Positions 217 through 39,999 of a stretch of DNA of 40,393 bases are shown piece by piece; position 1 is the stretch's first letter, and every line of letters begins with the position of its first letter. The notes beneath the pieces were generated by a model. That model worked only from the letters and a program-made list of their open reading frames with translations. It was not told the DNA's origin and made no database searches. Both the position numbers and the translations under genes were made by a program. The stretch comes from a virus (Duplodnaviria > Caudoviricetes), in the IMG/VR virus record IMGVR_UViG_3300036856_000029, positions 1 through 40,393 of that record. One strand, given 5' to 3'.

Positions 217-246
217 TTGACACGTTTACGACCTATCCCCTATATT
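217..246 (+). promoter_or_regulatory. Sigma70-type promoter of the rightward early operon
   Basis: TTGACA (217-222), 18 bp, TATATT (241-246); start expected near 252. Confidence 0.75.
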
Positions 247-264
247 CGGAGCTGCAACACCACT

Positions 265-300
265 TGGGCCTAGCCCAGCACCGAAAGGACGTACCGCATG
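265..300 (+). repeat. Repeated gene leader copy 1 (TGGGC-N3-GCCCA hairpin + GCACCGAAAGGA SD + ATG)
   Basis: TGGGCCTAGCCCAGCACCGAAAGGACGTACCGCATG; ends at the start codon at 298. Confidence 0.9.
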
Positions 301-948
301 GAATTGTTCGTCTCTCACCCGTCCAGCGACATACTTACCGAAAAGTACCGCCCGCTTCGCATCGCGGAGTTTGTGGGGCTTGACAAACCGCGCCGCATTG
401 CTGCCAAGTTCGCATCCAATCCGCCACGTACTGCGGGACTACTCTTCACAGGTGAACCCGGCATAGGCAAGACAACGCTCGCGCTCGCCATCGCAGCGGA
501 GATGCCTGCGGAGCTGCATCACGTCGCATCGCAAGATTGCAACATTGAACGGTTGCGCCAAGTAGTCGCAACATGCCACTACGTTCCAAGCGAAGGACGT
601 AAGCGGCATCTCGTGTTGATCGACGAAGCCGACCGCATGACACAAGCCGCACAGGATTACATGTTGTCAATCCTCGATTCAACCGCGCCGCCGCCGGATA
701 CGATCTTCATTTTGACCGCGAACAGCACGGAAAAACTTCACGAGCGTTTGCTCTCGCGCTGCATCCCTGTGCCGTTTTCGACGCATGGACAATCGACGCA
801 AACCGCTGCACTGTTAGAGCGCGTATGGGATGCGGAAGCCCCTGCAACCGCGCCGCGTCCCAACTTCGCGCGCATCGTCAAGGAATCGTGCAGCAACGTG
901 CGCGCGTCTCTCATGCAACTACAAACGGAGCTGCTACTCGCGGACTAA
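298..948 (+). CDS. Clamp-loader/RFC-RarA-like AAA+ ATPase lacking a C-terminal collar
   Basis: LTEKYRP..I.EFVG, Walker A GEPGIGKT, Walker B LIDEAD.MT..AQ, LLSRC arginine finger; only 216 aa. Confidence 0.85.
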   Translation: MELFVSHPSSDILTEKYRPLRIAEFVGLDKPRRIAAKFASNPPRTAGLLFTGEPGIGKTTLALAIAAEMPAELHHVASQDCNIERLRQVVATCHYVPSEGRKRHLVLIDEADRMTQAAQDYMLSILDSTAPPPDTIFILTANSTEKLHERLLSRCIPVPFSTHGQSTQTAALLERVWDAEAPATAPRPNFARIVKESCSNVRASLMQLQTELLLAD

Positions 949-967: not shown

Positions 968-1003
968 TGGGCATTGCCCAGCACCGAAAGGACGTAACGC
1001 ATG
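968..1003 (+). repeat. Repeated gene leader copy 2
   Basis: TGGGCATTGCCCAGCACCGAAAGGACGTAACGCATG; ATG at 1001. Confidence 0.9.
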
Positions 1004-1225: not shown

Positions 1226-1262
1226 TGGGCATTGCCCAGCACCGAAAGGACGTAATCGCATG
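1226..1262 (+). repeat. Repeated gene leader copy 3
   Basis: TGGGCATTGCCCAGCACCGAAAGGACGTAATCGCATG; ATG at 1260. Confidence 0.9.
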
Positions 1263-2162
1263 AATGCTTATGAAGTCATCACCGCGCGCCTGATCGAAAA
1301 ACTCGAAGCTGGCGTTATTCCTTGGAAGCAACCGTGGAAGAATAGCGCGCACGGCGCGTATCTCCCTACAAACTTCGCCACTGGACGCGGCTATCGCGGA
1401 ATCAATCTTGCGATGCTGCTTTGCAGCGGGTACGGCTCACAGCAGTGGATGACGTACAAGCAAGCGGAGGAGCTAGGCGCCAACGTTCGCAAGGGCGAGC
1501 GCGGCACCCCTGTTGTGTTCTGGAAGTTTCCCGGTAAAGCTGCGAATGAAGACGGTGCGATGGTGCGCGAGAAAGGCGCGCCGCTGTGCCGCTATTACAC
1601 GGTTTTCAACGTGGAACAGATTGACGGTTTGCCCGTCGATCTCCCCTTTGAAGATGCGCCTTTCGACGCCATCGAATCCGCGCAGCGCATCGTTGATGCG
1701 CATATGGCGAGCGCATCGCATCCGGAGCTGAAACACGGCGGCGCGAGTGCGTGCTACGTGCTCACTTACGACACGGTTTATATGCCCAAGCCGCAATCGT
1801 TTGTGACACCAGAAAAGTATTACTCCACGCTATTCCATGAGCTAGGTCACAGCACACGGCACCCGCGCCGCCTCGATCGCAAGAAAGAGGATGCGCGGTT
1901 TGGCTCCAAGGATTATGCAACTGAGGAGCTGGTAGCAGAGTTTACGGCGGCGTTTCTCTGCGCCGAATCAGGCATCGTTTCGGAGGACGTCGACGCGCAC
2001 AATGCGGCGTATATCAAGGATTGGCTGGATGTCTTCAAGGCTGATTCGCGCGTCGCTGTGATGGCTGCGCAGCGCGCACAAAAGGCCGCTGATTTCATCC
2101 TGGGCCGTGCCGCGTTCGATGCGGCTGAAGAGGCGCGCGAAGAGAGTGCGGTGGCCGCATAG
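1260..2162 (+). CDS. ardC: ArdC-family antirestriction/ssDNA-binding protein (DUF1738 + zincin-like domain)
   Basis: YE.IT..LIE.LE.G..PW..PW, YRGIN, W.TYKQA, VRKGE.G, YTVFNVEQ, HELGH, Y..EELVAE; start moved to the leader ATG at 1260. Confidence 0.93.
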   Translation: MNAYEVITARLIEKLEAGVIPWKQPWKNSAHGAYLPTNFATGRGYRGINLAMLLCSGYGSQQWMTYKQAEELGANVRKGERGTPVVFWKFPGKAANEDGAMVREKGAPLCRYYTVFNVEQIDGLPVDLPFEDAPFDAIESAQRIVDAHMASASHPELKHGGASACYVLTYDTVYMPKPQSFVTPEKYYSTLFHELGHSTRHPRRLDRKKEDARFGSKDYATEELVAEFTAAFLCAESGIVSEDVDAHNAAYIKDWLDVFKADSRVAVMAAQRAQKAADFILGRAAFDAAEEAREESAVAA

Positions 2163-2217
2163 GACGAAACGGGCAGAGCATCGCCCGTCGCAGCGTCAAG
2201 CGCTGCCTGATGAGTCC
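2162..2217 (+). ncRNA. Type II hammerhead ribozyme
   Basis: GGAC-GAAA-CGGGC-agagcatc-GCCCG-TC^-GCAGCG-tcaag-CGCTGC-CTGATGA-GTCC: complete core with three paired stems; predicted cleavage after C2189. Confidence 0.93.
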
Positions 2218-2238
2218 ACACCACGAAAGGAAACCTAA

Positions 2239-2478
2239 ATGCCCACCATCGACGAACGCCGCGAAGCTGTACGCGCACTCACTACCGAATGGCCGTATCT
2301 GAAAGCGTCCGAGCTCTACGACGCGGACGGAGATAGCCCAGAGAACATCGCCGTCAATTTGCAAATGCAAAAGACGGAGCTGCTTCGGGCGCTGAAAGAA
2401 ATCGTAGAGTCACAGCCGAAATTCTCCACTCCTGCCCGAATCGCTTCTGCCGCCATCGCCAACGCTGAAGGTCGCTAA
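2239..2478 (+). CDS. Hypothetical protein
   Basis: 79 aa ORF with SD GAAAGGA just downstream of the ribozyme. Confidence 0.7.
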   Translation: MPTIDERREAVRALTTEWPYLKASELYDADGDSPENIAVNLQMQKTELLRALKEIVESQPKFSTPARIASAAIANAEGR

Positions 2479-2497: not shown

Positions 2498-2535
2498 TGG
2501 GCCTCGCCCAGCACCGAAAGGAAACACTTTCAATG
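2498..2535 (+). repeat. Repeated gene leader copy 4
   Basis: TGGGCCTCGCCCAGCACCGAAAGGAAACACTTTCAATG; ATG at 2533. Confidence 0.88.
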
Positions 2536-2688
2536 ACTCCGAACGATCTGCACGAACTCGCCAATATGTACGGCTTCCTCGCCTGGCTGATTCCTACCCT
2601 CATCACCTTCGTGGCTCTCGTCGGCTACTGCTTTTGGATTTCACGCGACCGCGTACCCCGTTCGGCGCGCCGCAAGCGTGGGTTCTGA
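2533..2688 (+). CDS. Small single-pass membrane protein
   Basis: 51 aa; hydrophobic FLAWLIPTLITFVALVGYCFWI followed by a basic tail. Confidence 0.65.
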   Translation: MTPNDLHELANMYGFLAWLIPTLITFVALVGYCFWISRDRVPRSARRKRGF

Positions 2689-2795
2689 GGCTGTTGCACT
2701 CAGTCTCCACATTCACCCGCGCGGCTCGACGTACAGACGCGCGAATCGAGGGCAAACCGCCCGCCAACAGGCTGCAAAAACCATAAGGAGAGTAC

Positions 2796-3191
2796 ATGCA
2801 AATTCTCGACATCATCGCAGGGAAGTATCCGCAATTCCTCGAGCGCGCAGGCGTCGCCATCAAGGTCACCAATCAGCCGTACATGGATCTGAGCGTCGAG
2901 TCGATCGGCGCGCGCGGTCCGTGGGGCGAAGGTATCGCCGTTTCGATCTGCCACTACGGCGAGCAAAATGGTGATCTCATGCGTGACCCCGAGGTGTGTC
3001 TGGAGCGCACCGCTGCCGGCGGCTGGCGTCCGTACTACTACCGCAACGATTACGTCGGCTTCGAGCAAGAGAGCTGCGAGCCGGGCCTAGTCGCAGCTCT
3101 GGAAACCTTCTGCCGCACGTGGGATGCTAACCTGCGCAGCCAGGGATTCGTCACCGCAGTTGAGGCTGACAAAGCACAGGTGCGTGGATGA
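2796..3191 (+). CDS. DUF6908-like protein
   Basis: SD TAAGGAG; YMDLSVE, SICHYGEQNGDLMRDPE, W..NLR.QGF (family recalled from memory). Confidence 0.7.
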   Translation: MQILDIIAGKYPQFLERAGVAIKVTNQPYMDLSVESIGARGPWGEGIAVSICHYGEQNGDLMRDPEVCLERTAAGGWRPYYYRNDYVGFEQESCEPGLVAALETFCRTWDANLRSQGFVTAVEADKAQVRG

Positions 3192-3470
3192 CGCAGCGCA
3201 CCCTCTTCAACCTGCCAGCTCTGCCGCCCGTTCCTGCTGTCTGGGAACGGCGCGGCGGCGTCAACGGGGGCACCTGCGGCTCCTCTCACACTCACCTGCC
3301 CAGCGGCATGGTTGCGCGCCACTGTGGGCACCCTACGGCGAACTTTCCTTATTTACATCGAGACACCAGACGGCGGCTTGATCTATGCGCCGAACGGGCG
3401 CGGCTTCCAGCGTCTCGCGCTGGCTAAAGGGCATATTGAATCCCTCTGGAGGAATCGCACCAATGCCTAA
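3188..3470 (+). pseudogene. Hypothetical protein split by a 1-nt frameshift at ~3352-3354
   Basis: Frame 1 ends ...HCGHPTANFPY; removing one T continues YIETPDGGLIYAPNGRGFQRLALAKGHIESLWRNRTNA* with its stop overlapping the next ATG. Confidence 0.6.
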
Positions 3471-3759
3471 ATTCAAAGTTGAAGTTGAGGTCACCGCCCG
3501 CTGCCGGTACACCGTCGAGCTCGAAGCTGACGGCGAGGGGTGCGCCGAAGACGACGCGCTGAAGCTGTGGCGGTCGAAGCTGCCCGATGATTTCCAAGTC
3601 GAGAAAGGTTACATCGACGATTGGGACACGGAGGTCGAACAGCTCACGTGGGAGTGCACAGAGTGCGGCGCGGAGATCTCGCAGGAACAATCCGACAAGG
3701 GCGACGGTCTCTGCCCCGCCTGCGATGCGAAGATGAAGGCGGAGGAGAGCAGTGCCTAG
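3463..3759 (+). CDS. DpnD/PcfM-like domain + C-terminal Zn ribbon
   Basis: SD GGAGG; MPKFKVEV......TVELEA....AE; CTEC...CPAC. Confidence 0.6.
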   Translation: MPKFKVEVEVTARCRYTVELEADGEGCAEDDALKLWRSKLPDDFQVEKGYIDDWDTEVEQLTWECTECGAEISQEQSDKGDGLCPACDAKMKAEESSA

Positions 3760-4072
3760 TCGTGATCTAACCCCTGCGCAAGCCACCGACCTCGCGCGTT
3801 ACTTCCTCGGTCCGGAGTGGCGCGCGCGGCTCACCCATTCGCTACAGAAGCCGTACATGCTCAGCGACGGCCGCCAAGCCTACGCCGCCGCGAGCTGGCG
3901 CTCTCTCTTCCGGCTGGTCGACGTCAAGCTGCCGGTCCGGCCGCAGTTCATCTCCGCAGGGATGCGCGTGATGATGGGAGAGCGCGCCGTTGCCACCGCT
4001 GTATCAAACTCGATGGCCAAGCGCATCGCCGCCGCGCTCAACGAACACGAGCCTAACTCGCGCGGCATCTGA
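3752..4072 (+). CDS. Hypothetical protein
   Basis: GTG start with GGAGGAG SD, overlaps the upstream stop, ends at the terminator. Confidence 0.65.
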   Translation: MPSRDLTPAQATDLARYFLGPEWRARLTHSLQKPYMLSDGRQAYAAASWRSLFRLVDVKLPVRPQFISAGMRVMMGERAVATAVSNSMAKRIAAALNEHEPNSRGI

Positions 4073-4074
4073 AA

Positions 4075-4110
4075 CTAGAAAACCCCGCCGGCTTGGCGGG
4101 GTTGTTCTAG
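4075..4110. terminator. Hairpin terminator between convergent operons, probably bidirectional
   Basis: CTAGAA-AACCCCGCC-ggctt-GGCGGGGTT-g-TTCTAG. Confidence 0.8.
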
Positions 4111-10754: not shown

Positions 10755-10883
10755 TTACAGCTCGCGCCGCATGCGGTGCAGCCGTTCGACTCGTCGCCGG
10801 CGGCGGTCCTCGTTCTCTGCCACGCGTGCGATGTCGAATCCGGCGATGAGCAACACAGAAGCGATAACGAGCAGCGTCAGCAC
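10755..10883 (-). CDS. 42-aa membrane peptide (absent from the ORF track)
   Basis: GAGGAG SD + GTG; MLTLLVIASVLLIAGFDIARVAENEDRRRRRVERLHRMRREL*; fills the gap in the operon. Confidence 0.6.
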   Translation of the reverse strand: MLTLLVIASVLLIAGFDIARVAENEDRRRRRVERLHRMRREL

Positions 10884-11158
10884 GCCGCCCGCTCCTCGAT
10901 GTCGAGCACATAGATGAGGCGGTCCTTGCGTCCGCGCGCCATCAGCAGGGTGCGCAGAGCGCGCGCGATGCGCCCGCCGCGGCCGATGACCTTGCCGATC
11001 TCGCGCGGGGGCACCTTCACGCCGAACGCGATGCGATCGGGATGCAGCTCGGGTTGGATGATGATCTTGTCGGGGTCCCGCTCATCGACCAGGTTGGTGA
11101 TGATGAGCGTGAGCCAGCTGGCGGTGAGAGTGGCTTTCTCTACAGTCTCGGAATTCAT
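10877..11158 (-). CDS. khpA: KhpA-like single KH-domain RNA-binding protein
   Basis: I..LVD..D.I.I, V...EIGKVIGRGGR.ARALRTLL, ..LDI; start MNSET. Confidence 0.82.
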   Translation of the reverse strand: MNSETVEKATLTASWLTLIITNLVDERDPDKIIIQPELHPDRIAFGVKVPPREIGKVIGRGGRIARALRTLLMARGRKDRLIYVLDIEERAAC

Positions 11159-11196
11159 ACCCCTAACGATACCCGTATCGCTAGGGGATATGTCAA
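11159..11196 (-). promoter_or_regulatory. Promoter (probably leaderless) overlapped by a 28-bp palindrome
   Basis: TTGACA, 19 bp, TATCGT, 7 nt, ATG; CCCCTAGCGATAC-GG-GTATCGTTAGGGG. Confidence 0.7.
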
Positions 11197-11205
11197 GGCC
11201 TATGG

Positions 11206-12414
11206 TTATGTGGCGTAAACACACCATGTCAATGTTCTCGGAACGGAACCGCTCGACAGAGAAACGGTCCAATTCGTACCGTTCCATGTCACGCTGCCGC
11301 TTCCAAGCCCGGTGATCTGGCTCGTTCCCAGCAGCTGCGACCCAAGATTCGCATCGAGGATGAACATCGCGGATCCACCGAGAGTGTTGTCTCGCAGCAC
11401 AAGCATCCCCGAAGCGGAGCCAGTGCCGGCAAGCGTTGTCGCGGTGGACAGGGCGGTGACCGACACCGACGAAGTGCCTCCGAATATGACAGCAGTGGAA
11501 GTAGCGCCGGTGATCGTACCGCCCGTCGACACGTTGCCATTCCCGTCGATGGAGAATGAGTTGGGGGTGCCACCGACCACCGTCAGCGTAGCAAAGGCTC
11601 CGATGCCGGGGGTCGTAGTGCCGATGGGGGGAGGAGCCGAGAACAGATTAGTCGTAGTGTCCCAAAAGGCTCCGGTGCTGGGGTTCTCGAAAAGAATGTT
11701 CGGGCCGGCAGCTGTCGCGCCTGCGAGCCGCGTGGCCGCGCCGGCCGTGCCACCGACGATGAAGTCACCCGCCGCGGTCATCGGGTTCCCGAAGCTGGCC
11801 GGGCAGTTGGTGCCTCCCGAGAGACACACCGCAGAGCCGCCGATGGTTGTGCCGGCCGCCAGCGTCGTCGTCGAAGTGGAGCTCAGTGTGGTGAATTTGC
11901 CGGCGGCGGCCGTCGTCTGCCCGACGGTCGTGCCATTGATCGCTCCGCCTGTGATCGCGACGCTGTTGGCGTTCTGAGTTGCCATCGTGCCGAGCGTGGG
12001 CAGCGCGACCGCGGTCTGCGAGGTCACCAGACCCTTCCCGTTCGTCGTGGGCACGCAGAAATGAGTCGAGTCGCCGCACGCTCCGGCTCCGCTGTTGACC
12101 GTCGTCAGCGTGAAGAGCGCGCTGCCTGGCCCGGTAGCAGCTCCATCGCCATGGAGCGCTGTAATCGCGCTCGGAGCCGCCGCCGCAAACCATCCGCTCG
12201 AGCCGCATTGATACTGCGTGTTGGGCGTGGTGCTGGTGTCGAGATAGGGCTGCTCGTAGTTGGCGCTGGTGCAGCTCGCCGCCGGAGCTCCGGAGCCGGT
12301 GGCCAGTGGCCAGTTGACCCCGTTGTTCGGGTTGATCTTCTGCGCGCTAGCTGCCGCTGTACATGTAATTGCAGATGTGAGAATCGCCGTCTTGAGGAAT
12401 GTACCCAGCTTCAT
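11206..12414 (-). CDS. Tail fibre/adhesin-like protein with N-terminal signal peptide
   Basis: G/T/A/S-rich; fibre-type motifs LGTMATQNANSVAITGGAI.GT..G.T....G.FT, NPMT.AGD.IVGG..G...RL; last gene of the virion operon. Confidence 0.65.
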   Translation of the reverse strand: MKLGTFLKTAILTSAITCTAAASAQKINPNNGVNWPLATGSGAPAASCTSANYEQPYLDTSTTPNTQYQCGSSGWFAAAAPSAITALHGDGAATGPGSALFTLTTVNSGAGACGDSTHFCVPTTNGKGLVTSQTAVALPTLGTMATQNANSVAITGGAINGTTVGQTTAAAGKFTTLSSTSTTTLAAGTTIGGSAVCLSGGTNCPASFGNPMTAAGDFIVGGTAGAATRLAGATAAGPNILFENPSTGAFWDTTTNLFSAPPPIGTTTPGIGAFATLTVVGGTPNSFSIDGNGNVSTGGTITGATSTAVIFGGTSSVSVTALSTATTLAGTGSASGMLVLRDNTLGGSAMFILDANLGSQLLGTSQITGLGSGSVTWNGTNWTVSLSSGSVPRTLTWCVYAT

Positions 12415-39685: not shown

Positions 39686-39721
39686 ACTTCCACAGCCAAT
39701 TTTGGGAATCGCCTCGCGCCT

Positions 39722-39999
39722 CCGGTGAATTGGTACACGCACCCGAAAAGCGAAAAAATAGCGCAAGCAGCTCAGACAAGTCCCTCCGGTGAATCGGTAC
39801 ACGCGTAGACCGGTGAATCGGTACAGTCGCGGAGCGACTTTTCCAGTATCCATGCGGGTTTTGTCGCGCGGGTTTTGGCGTTTTTGGCCGCGCGATTTGA
39901 GGGCCGCGAGACCGGTGAATCGGTACACGCGACCCTCGCGAATATTGATTCCGTCTCCGGTGAATTGGTACACGCTGACTCCGGTGAATTGGTACACGC
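39722..39999 (+). repeat. Six replication iterons (oriV)
   Basis: CCGGTGAATYGGTACA(CGC) at 39722, 39786, 39810, 39912, 39957, 39981, upstream of repA. Confidence 0.92.

Follow-up and report, generated by a model that had tools for sequence, protein, structure and literature searches.

The window analysed here is the whole 40,393-nt record of a phage, probably from soil. One DNA data set, a soil metagenome that may be its source, contains the stretch in a single contig and with no differences. Its terminase, head–tail adaptor, major head protein and endolysin genes lie on the minus strand, and its left end carries a plus-strand operon of nine open reading frames (ORFs): an AAA gene, a 61-aa ORF, ardC, a 79-aa ORF, a 51-aa ORF, a DUF6908 gene and three small ORFs. 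The features of this early operon are as follows.

217–246, plus strand: sigma-70-type promoter, 11 of 12 consensus positions; the identical spacing recurs in relatives
265–300, plus strand: leader copy 1, the primary 5′ UTR (hairpin 265–277, Shine–Dalgarno (SD) sequence, ATG 298)
298–948, plus strand: first operon gene, for a clamp-loader-like AAA+ ATPase, and marker of the phage group (domain and family searches)
968–1003, plus strand: leader copy 2, before the 61-aa ORF
1226–1262, plus strand: leader copy 3, before ardC, with a stronger second hairpin upstream at about 1189–1209
1260–2162, plus strand: ardC, 300 aa, with ArdcN and MPTase-PolyVal domains (PF08401, E = 4.8e-35; PF18818, E = 2e-37; phrog_7245)
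2161–2217, plus strand: putative hammerhead of type II topology with an open stem II, of a pseudoknot-less phage subgroup (pattern, shuffles, model R1)
2218–2241, plus strand: spacer, SD-like GAAAGGA (2225–2231) and ATG 2239, like the 3′ half of the repeated leader
2239–2478, plus strand: 79-aa ORF directly downstream of the ribozyme, no relatives detected
2498–2535, plus strand: leader copy 4, before the 51-aa ORF
2533–4072, plus strand: remaining ORFs of 51 aa, DUF6908 (2796–3191), 79 aa (uncertain), 98 aa and 106 aa (ORF calls, domain search)
4075–4110: strong hairpin at the operon end (folding; terminator score on the minus strand only)

Both domains of the ardC product exceed their curated cut-offs, and by domain content the predicted protein qualifies as an ArdC anti-restriction protein. 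It is alone among the nine ORFs in bearing an anti-defence label, most of the ORFs having no family at all. For the AAA protein, PADLOC returned nothing beyond weak P-loop matches. The DUF6908 protein gave one weak partial match, and a search with the 79-aa ORF among proteins of 43–139 aa returned only itself; a single partial match to the latter, a weak one, came from a viral locus (L054). The AAA protein has relatives at 34 loci, 18 viral and 16 from genomes. Since 15 of the 16 genome loci bear Acidobacteriota names (genus names assigned to that phylum) and the remaining one has no label, the host is probably an acidobacterium.

Three further features of the genome were recorded. Short degenerate repeats lie upstream of the early promoter (63–190), and relatives have similarly repeat-rich left ends; a 24-nt repeat occurs five times near the right end (39717–39999) and may represent sites for protein binding or an origin; and a KhpA/B-type KH-domain RNA-binding protein is encoded at 10877–11287 on the minus strand, for which the search returned only the window's own protein.

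The hammerhead at the ardC stop codon

A structural pattern search located a complete type II hammerhead motif at 2161–2217 on the plus strand, where ardC ends and before the ribosome-binding site of the following gene. Neither strand of the whole window has another type II match, and of 400 dinucleotide-shuffled strands only 2 contained a loose match and none an equally good one. Its parts, all on the plus strand, are mapped as follows.

2162–2165/2214–2217: stem II, four Watson–Crick pairs
2166–2168: G12-A13-A14
2169 and 2188: A15.1, paired with U16.1
2170–2174/2183–2187: stem III, five pairs, six with A15.1–U16.1
2187–2189: GUC, with C17 at 2189
2189/2190: predicted cleavage site, 3′ of C17 in GUC
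2190–2195/2201–2206: stem I, six pairs and a 5-nt loop, one further U-G wobble being possible
2207–2213: CUGAUGA
2169–2188: stem III hairpin, which would form the 3′ terminus of the upstream (ardC) product (pair probability 0.88–0.97 in six contexts)
2190–2206: stem I hairpin, with U2196 at position +7, which would form the 5′ terminus of the downstream product without a 5′ overhang (pair probability 0.90–0.99)

The hammerhead core is present in full (C3-U4-G5-A6-N7-G8-A9, G12-A13-A14, A15.1-U16.1 and H17, at 2207–2213, 2166–2169 and 2188–2189), and three helices of 6, 4 and 6 Watson–Crick pairs close the junction, G10.1–C11.1 being G2214–C2165. The topology is that defined as type II (PMC3088659): loops close stems I and III, and stem II is open. 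An initial annotation of this DNA had already described a full core with Watson–Crick-paired stems, which the pattern map and the shuffles bear out. It had also correctly noted that the first G of the ribozyme, G2162, is the last base of the ardC TAG (2160–2162), and that a partial leader leads on to ATG 2239; indeed, GAAAGGA at 2225–2231 is embedded in a tail like that of the repeated leader. A2161 is likewise common to the stop codon and the ribozyme. Hammerhead cleavage generates 2′,3′-cyclic phosphate and 5′-OH ends (PMC6155905), and these are the ends that cleavage after C2189 is predicted to leave.

As a check, the initial annotation had proposed a search against the Rfam model Hammerhead_II (RF02276). 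This gave no match for the window copy, even at E ≤ 10, the gathering threshold being 37 bits. The element shares with RF02276 the order GAAA, stem III, GUC, stem I, CUGAUGA and the open stem II; it differs in having a stem II of 4 bp instead of 2, and a loop I of 5 nt instead of about 10. Related copies from two other phage loci (L016 and L203) match RF02276 at 34–35 bits. A partial 17-bit match of the window copy to Hammerhead_3 was rejected because it borrows the GAAA of the SD sequence (2225–2228) and lacks stem III.

The folding energy of the element is unremarkable (z = −1.02, not significant). In four of six sequence contexts the lowest-energy structure is the hammerhead fold, which lies above the minimum by 0.3 kcal/mol in one other context and by 3.0 kcal/mol in the longest. 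Stable pairing is predicted for stems I and III in all six (0.88–0.99), and the pair probability of stem II varies from 0.98 to 0.05 depending on the context.

The majority of type II hammerheads are described as having a pseudoknot in which at least four pairs link loop I to the 3′ tail; one example with such a pseudoknot was 20- to more than 100-fold less active when deprived of it, and 4 of 18 consensus hammerheads assayed were inactive (Perreault 2011, PMC3088659). No such pseudoknot of at least four pairs was found in the window copy, the best candidate having two pairs.

A pseudoknot-less subgroup in phages

A search pattern that fixed only the letters of stem II and of the core, stem pairing being no part of it, matched at least 137 viral loci, with about 320 stretches estimated; the counts that follow come from the 130 distinct viral matches listed. 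Stems I and III form in 125 of these 130, as opposed to 8 of 6,500 shuffled spacers. Two bases that had not been searched for are nearly invariant among the matches listed: an A directly 5′ of stem II in 127 of 130 other copies (A2161 in the window) and a U seven bases after the cut in 124 of 125 (U2196). Given that the A before stem II is near-invariant in the subgroup, the element probably starts at A2161, one base 5′ of the start given in the initial annotation, whose assignment of a type II hammerhead to this site stands. A U at position +7 that forms a trans-Hoogsteen pair with an A of loop II has been described for active hammerheads (PMC9217987; PMC6155905). By mapping this pair onto an open stem II, we infer that U2196 may contact A2161, the A of the ardC stop codon, in a tertiary interaction replacing that with the loop II A. 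The pseudoknot is not enriched in the subgroup: it occurs in 7 of the 125 other copies listed, with 9.8 expected from shuffled tails.

A covariance model, R1, was built from 40 non-window phage copies preselected for folding and similar length. It scores the window copy at 63.5 bits over model positions 1–69 of 69 (E ~ 1e-14, the E-values being rough), and among its 40 members two-sided changes occur in all six pairs of stem I and in four of the six of stem III. The window copy displays the subgroup's features: a 4-bp stem II, a 6-bp stem I, a loop of 5–6 nt that starts with U, the A before stem II, a stop codon upstream and an SD sequence downstream. Judged from sequence, the element is a real and probably active type II hammerhead.

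For the subgroup, it is the norm to follow a stop codon and to precede a ribosome-binding site. Among the matches listed, 102 of 125 copies have the stop codon of an ORF of at least 50 aa no more than 12 nt upstream (controls: 662 of 12,500 random positions and 19 of 123 antisense), and an SD sequence with a start codon follows in 99 of 123 (control: 1,069 of 6,200). The flanking genes were scanned at loci of at least 1,500 nt, which provided 135 flanking ORFs, 133 of them scanned and the other two being shorter starts of included ORFs. For the matches listed, 105 of the 133 had no Pfam match, one was an ArdC (located downstream of its ribozyme) and one a weak ArdA.

From these sequence counts the subgroup appears as a common one in phages. 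Since the Rfam type II model at threshold misses most of it, such parts are probably under-annotated in phage genomes. No publication on the pairing of ardC with a hammerhead, or on the pseudoknot-less subgroup, was found in the largely open-access literature covered. Note that in 26 of the 130 copies listed the first bases of the CUGAUGA core could pair with the five that follow stem II, and this part could refold after cleavage; this complementarity is absent from the window copy.

Likely segmentation of the early message

Hammerheads at gene junctions have been known in phages since 2011, and the window copy is one more example. Perreault 2011 (PMC3088659) reports type II hammerheads, and clusters of them, flanking prophage genes and proposes that they process long transcripts into mRNAs the length of an operon or a gene. 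In vitro, prophage hammerheads arranged in tandem cleaved polycistronic RNAs of 2 kb; hammerheads around ardA were seen to cut in E. coli, and ardA adjoins hammerheads in Agrobacterium and Legionella. The likeness extends to the type II fold, the intergenic position in a phage operon, the anti-restriction neighbour and the proposed processing of a long transcript. By contrast, the window has a single copy in a 40-kb genome, not a cluster, its neighbour is ardC, upstream, not ardA, it lacks the pseudoknot between loop I and the 3′ tail, and it is known from sequence. The text supplements of that paper contain no match for ardC terms. The element would function like these prophage hammerheads, yet it falls outside RF02276 by both score and pseudoknot. 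Three type II hammerheads near phage-like genes have also been reported to cut in Desulfovibrio cells (Olzog et al. 2021, PMC8782182); those of Desulfovibrio vulgaris resemble ours in lying among hypothetical and phage-like genes, cleavage being seen there and predicted here.

What is seen directly at the locus is the core, the three stems, their position, the membership in a covarying subgroup and the promoter-like site at 217–246. On this basis, we consider it fairly likely that the ribozyme cuts the early mRNA after C2189 into two separately translated pieces, insulating the downstream genes. A single transcript would run from about 253 to about 4110 (~3.86 kb), and the ribozyme would fold once 2217 has been transcribed and the ardC stop codon is free of ribosome, the U2196–A2161 contact assisting folding in place of the pseudoknot. 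The cut would fall near the middle of the message and give pieces of 1,937 and 1,921 nt: the upstream one, with AAA, the 61-aa ORF and ardC, would end in the stem III hairpin with its cyclic phosphate, and the downstream one would start, 49 nt before ATG 2239, with a 5′-OH on a stem I paired along its whole length. Because of the type II order, both new ends would be capped by hairpins, and the distal genes would therefore have a protected 5′ end of their own, independent of ardC, as with the engineered RiboJ. With the latter, mRNA rose about twofold, and protein by a factor of two to ten (Clifton et al. 2018, PMC6206723); note that it consists of the sTRSV ribozyme plus an added hairpin and is placed after a promoter, whereas the window element is natural, of type II and between genes. 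The predicted opening energy of the SD sequence is nearly unchanged by the cut (2.24 to 1.80 kcal/mol), so that better access to it would not be the reason for cutting, and any gain would lie in stability or uncoupling.

In favour of segmentation stand the canonical core and stems, the R1 score, the covariation and the placement of the subgroup after a stop codon and before an SD sequence, and the ribozymes in the operons of relatives. Against it stand the short, context-dependent stem II (4 bp; +3.0 kcal/mol in the longest context), the lack of a pseudoknot and the absence of a ribozyme from most relatives. The initial annotation had proposed that the ribozyme self-segments an anti-defence polycistron: segmentation is upheld by inference and by precedent (Perreault 2011, PMC3088659), but 'anti-defence' as a label for the operon is not supported, ardC alone of the nine ORFs bearing it.

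The cut could instead destabilize the downstream RNA by exposing it to RNase J, thereby lowering or timing the expression of the distal early genes, as in glmS, where the 5′-OH product of the ribozyme is degraded by RNase J1 (bioRxiv 10.1101/2023.03.12.532304). RNase J and RNase E/G genes were present in all three host-lineage genomes searched. We nevertheless regard such an outcome as unlikely: the new 5′ end is predicted to be fully paired in stem I, 5′ stem-loops are reported to stabilize processed isoforms in B. subtilis operons (bioRxiv 10.1101/2023.03.12.532304), and among the matches listed there are other phages with several hammerhead copies within one gene array and a fresh SD sequence behind each.

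Ribozymes and hairpins at the junctions of related operons

A hammerhead or a twister was found near the AAA gene or in its operon at 5 of the 18 viral loci, where it looks intact, and at 4 of the 16 genome loci (9 of 34 in all).

L198: type II hammerhead after AAA (53.7 bits with R1)
L203: type II hammerhead after AAA, core variant (Rfam Hammerhead_II, 35.1 bits)
L199: type I hammerhead (pattern match only, no Rfam match)
L204: two twister-P5, above the Rfam threshold, flush with stop codons
L207: twister-P1 after ardC (E = 8e-6, below threshold)
L331, L334 and L335: type II hammerheads (16 of 16 genome loci scanned)
L333: twister-P5 (14 of 16 genome loci scanned)

Slots of one kind are therefore occupied by different folds. 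Behind the AAA gene, for instance, the window has a leader hairpin, and L198, L331 and L334 each have a hammerhead; in L335 the hammerhead precedes the AAA gene. That unrelated ribozyme classes occupy common gene neighbourhoods has been reviewed by Weinberg et al. (2019, PMC6765202), who describe twisters in the same contexts as hammerheads, and the twisters of L204, L207 and L333 extend this, with a different fold, to the present operon type. According to the same review, the purpose that ribozymes with self-cleaving activity serve in phages and bacteria is still open. The exchange of folds in one slot suggests that the cut itself is what is kept.

A special link between ardC and the ribozyme is not supported. 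A ribozyme stands directly after ardC at 1 of 32 ArdC viral loci (two of which end before the ardC stop codon), namely L016, with the identical TAG overlap; in L004 a hammerhead lies some 950 nt beyond ardC. Six viral loci of the AAA group contain the complete ardC junction, and one of these has a twister there; none of the 6 genome loci with ardC has a ribozyme after it. ArdC is 1 of the 133 flanking genes of the matches listed. A further hammerhead with the same TAG overlap after ardC, in L306 (identical to L288), stays outside these counts because it was located through the hammerhead pattern. An ArdC-specific pairing was rejected on these figures, and the ribozyme is likely a generic junction part rather than a regulator of ardC.

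The sharing of A2161 and G2162 with the TAG raises the question of a translation-gated switch, in which a ribosome terminating or stalled at the ardC stop codon blocks folding and cleavage reports ardC translation. Indeed, forcing 2148–2175 to be unpaired abolished stems II and III in folding predictions, the stop codon includes the near-invariant A in 48 of the 125 copies listed, and the TAG overlap recurs after ardC in L016 and L306. However, the A and the G are dictated by the ribozyme, so that a single T suffices to make a TAG; the offsets of the stop codon relative to the ribozyme spread from 0 to −12 among the matches listed; twister-P5, another fold, is also flush with stop codons in L204, which points to tight packing; and the hammerhead of L335 sits before the AAA gene. 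We consider a gate of this kind rather improbable. The same low probability applies, in our estimation, to a wider scheme in which the early operon of these Acidobacteriota phages would be punctuated by RNA parts that can replace one another (hammerheads of types I and II, twister-P1 and twister-P5, leader hairpins and one or more internal-loop hairpins not yet catalogued), and in which the stop-codon A would provide the only tertiary contact of the pseudoknot-less subgroup, so that termination would gate the cut.

In L192–L194, the three closest relatives with ardC (ArdC 62–64% identical), the end codons of ardC are nearly the same and its stop codon overlaps the ATG that follows, the junction being free of both ribozyme and leader hairpin. 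For this reason, the ribozyme plus the 79-aa ORF has the look of a cassette substituted for a coupled gene block, the two having likely arrived together. The comparison also qualifies the earlier statement that the ribozyme takes the place of the leader hairpin, which is true in comparison with the other cassettes of the window but not with these three relatives. L192, the closest relative, does contain a type II hammerhead elsewhere (L192:2797–2855), but its core is broken (G5 and neighbouring bases changed) and neither an SD sequence nor an ORF follows; it looks like a decaying cassette. Since most relatives are devoid of ribozyme and the L192 copy is broken, the ribozyme is dispensable.

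These observations could also mean that the ribozyme is a passenger, brought in together with the 79-aa ORF and, in its present context, slow or irrelevant; the weakness of stem II in long contexts and the lack of clear relatives of the 79-aa ORF would fit. We hold this to be improbable as well, as all core bases, stem pairs and both conserved extra bases are intact, together with the SD sequence and the downstream ORF. Segmentation remains the reading that we favor, and the locus offers a convenient test case for it: a single ribozyme in one operon, with relatives that have no ribozyme, a decayed copy or a twister instead.

Four genes of the operon carry the repeated leader, in which a hairpin of 5 bp is followed by a short spacer and GAAAGGA, and the spacer–SD tail is common to the leaders and the ribozyme. 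The initial annotation had surmised that these hairpins are protein-dependent equivalents of the ribozyme. Every junction would then be processed, the leaders being cut by a nuclease, a proposal compatible with segmentation at the ribozyme. The common tail and the exchange of leader hairpin and hammerheads in the slot after AAA (window as opposed to L198, L331 and L334) speak for it, as does the junction before ardC, whose predicted succession of hairpin, A/C-rich linker and hairpin mirrors the two ribozyme products; RNase E/G and RNase J are encoded in the host lineage. The proposal is mostly unsupported, though, and in our judgement unlikely: leader copy 1 is the primary 5′ UTR, lying 15–18 nt past the −10 hexamer in the window and in seven relatives, where there is nothing to segment; ribozyme and leader hairpin stand in series at three junctions (that of L203 and both of L204); and the leader stem is nearly invariant in close relatives, leaving little covariation available, with no cut site predictable. 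We read the repeated hairpins as a duplicated translation leader.

A few further observations concern RNA elements at such junctions. In L016, an unrelated phage early region (L016:3650–6640) has several repeated promoter-plus-leader cassettes, and two type II hammerheads lie at junctions without the promoter repeat, one of them overlapping the ardC TAG. In the window, the stop codon of the 51-aa ORF is followed by a hairpin, then by a possible compact pseudoknot (~2712–2752) and a leader-like 4-bp hairpin before the SD sequence of DUF6908; this segment (2689–2795) had no Rfam match and no similar DNA among the relative loci compared. Finally, at four Acidobacteriota genome loci the AAA gene is followed, in the slot of hammerheads elsewhere, by a hairpin of two short stems and a large internal loop with an A-rich 3′ side (L328:6608–6649, L330:6606–6645, L341:6612–6649 and L342:6290–6331). 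The four sequences are similar, and the three scanned had no Rfam match at gathering level; this hairpin may serve as a nuclease site or may be a ribozyme not described so far.
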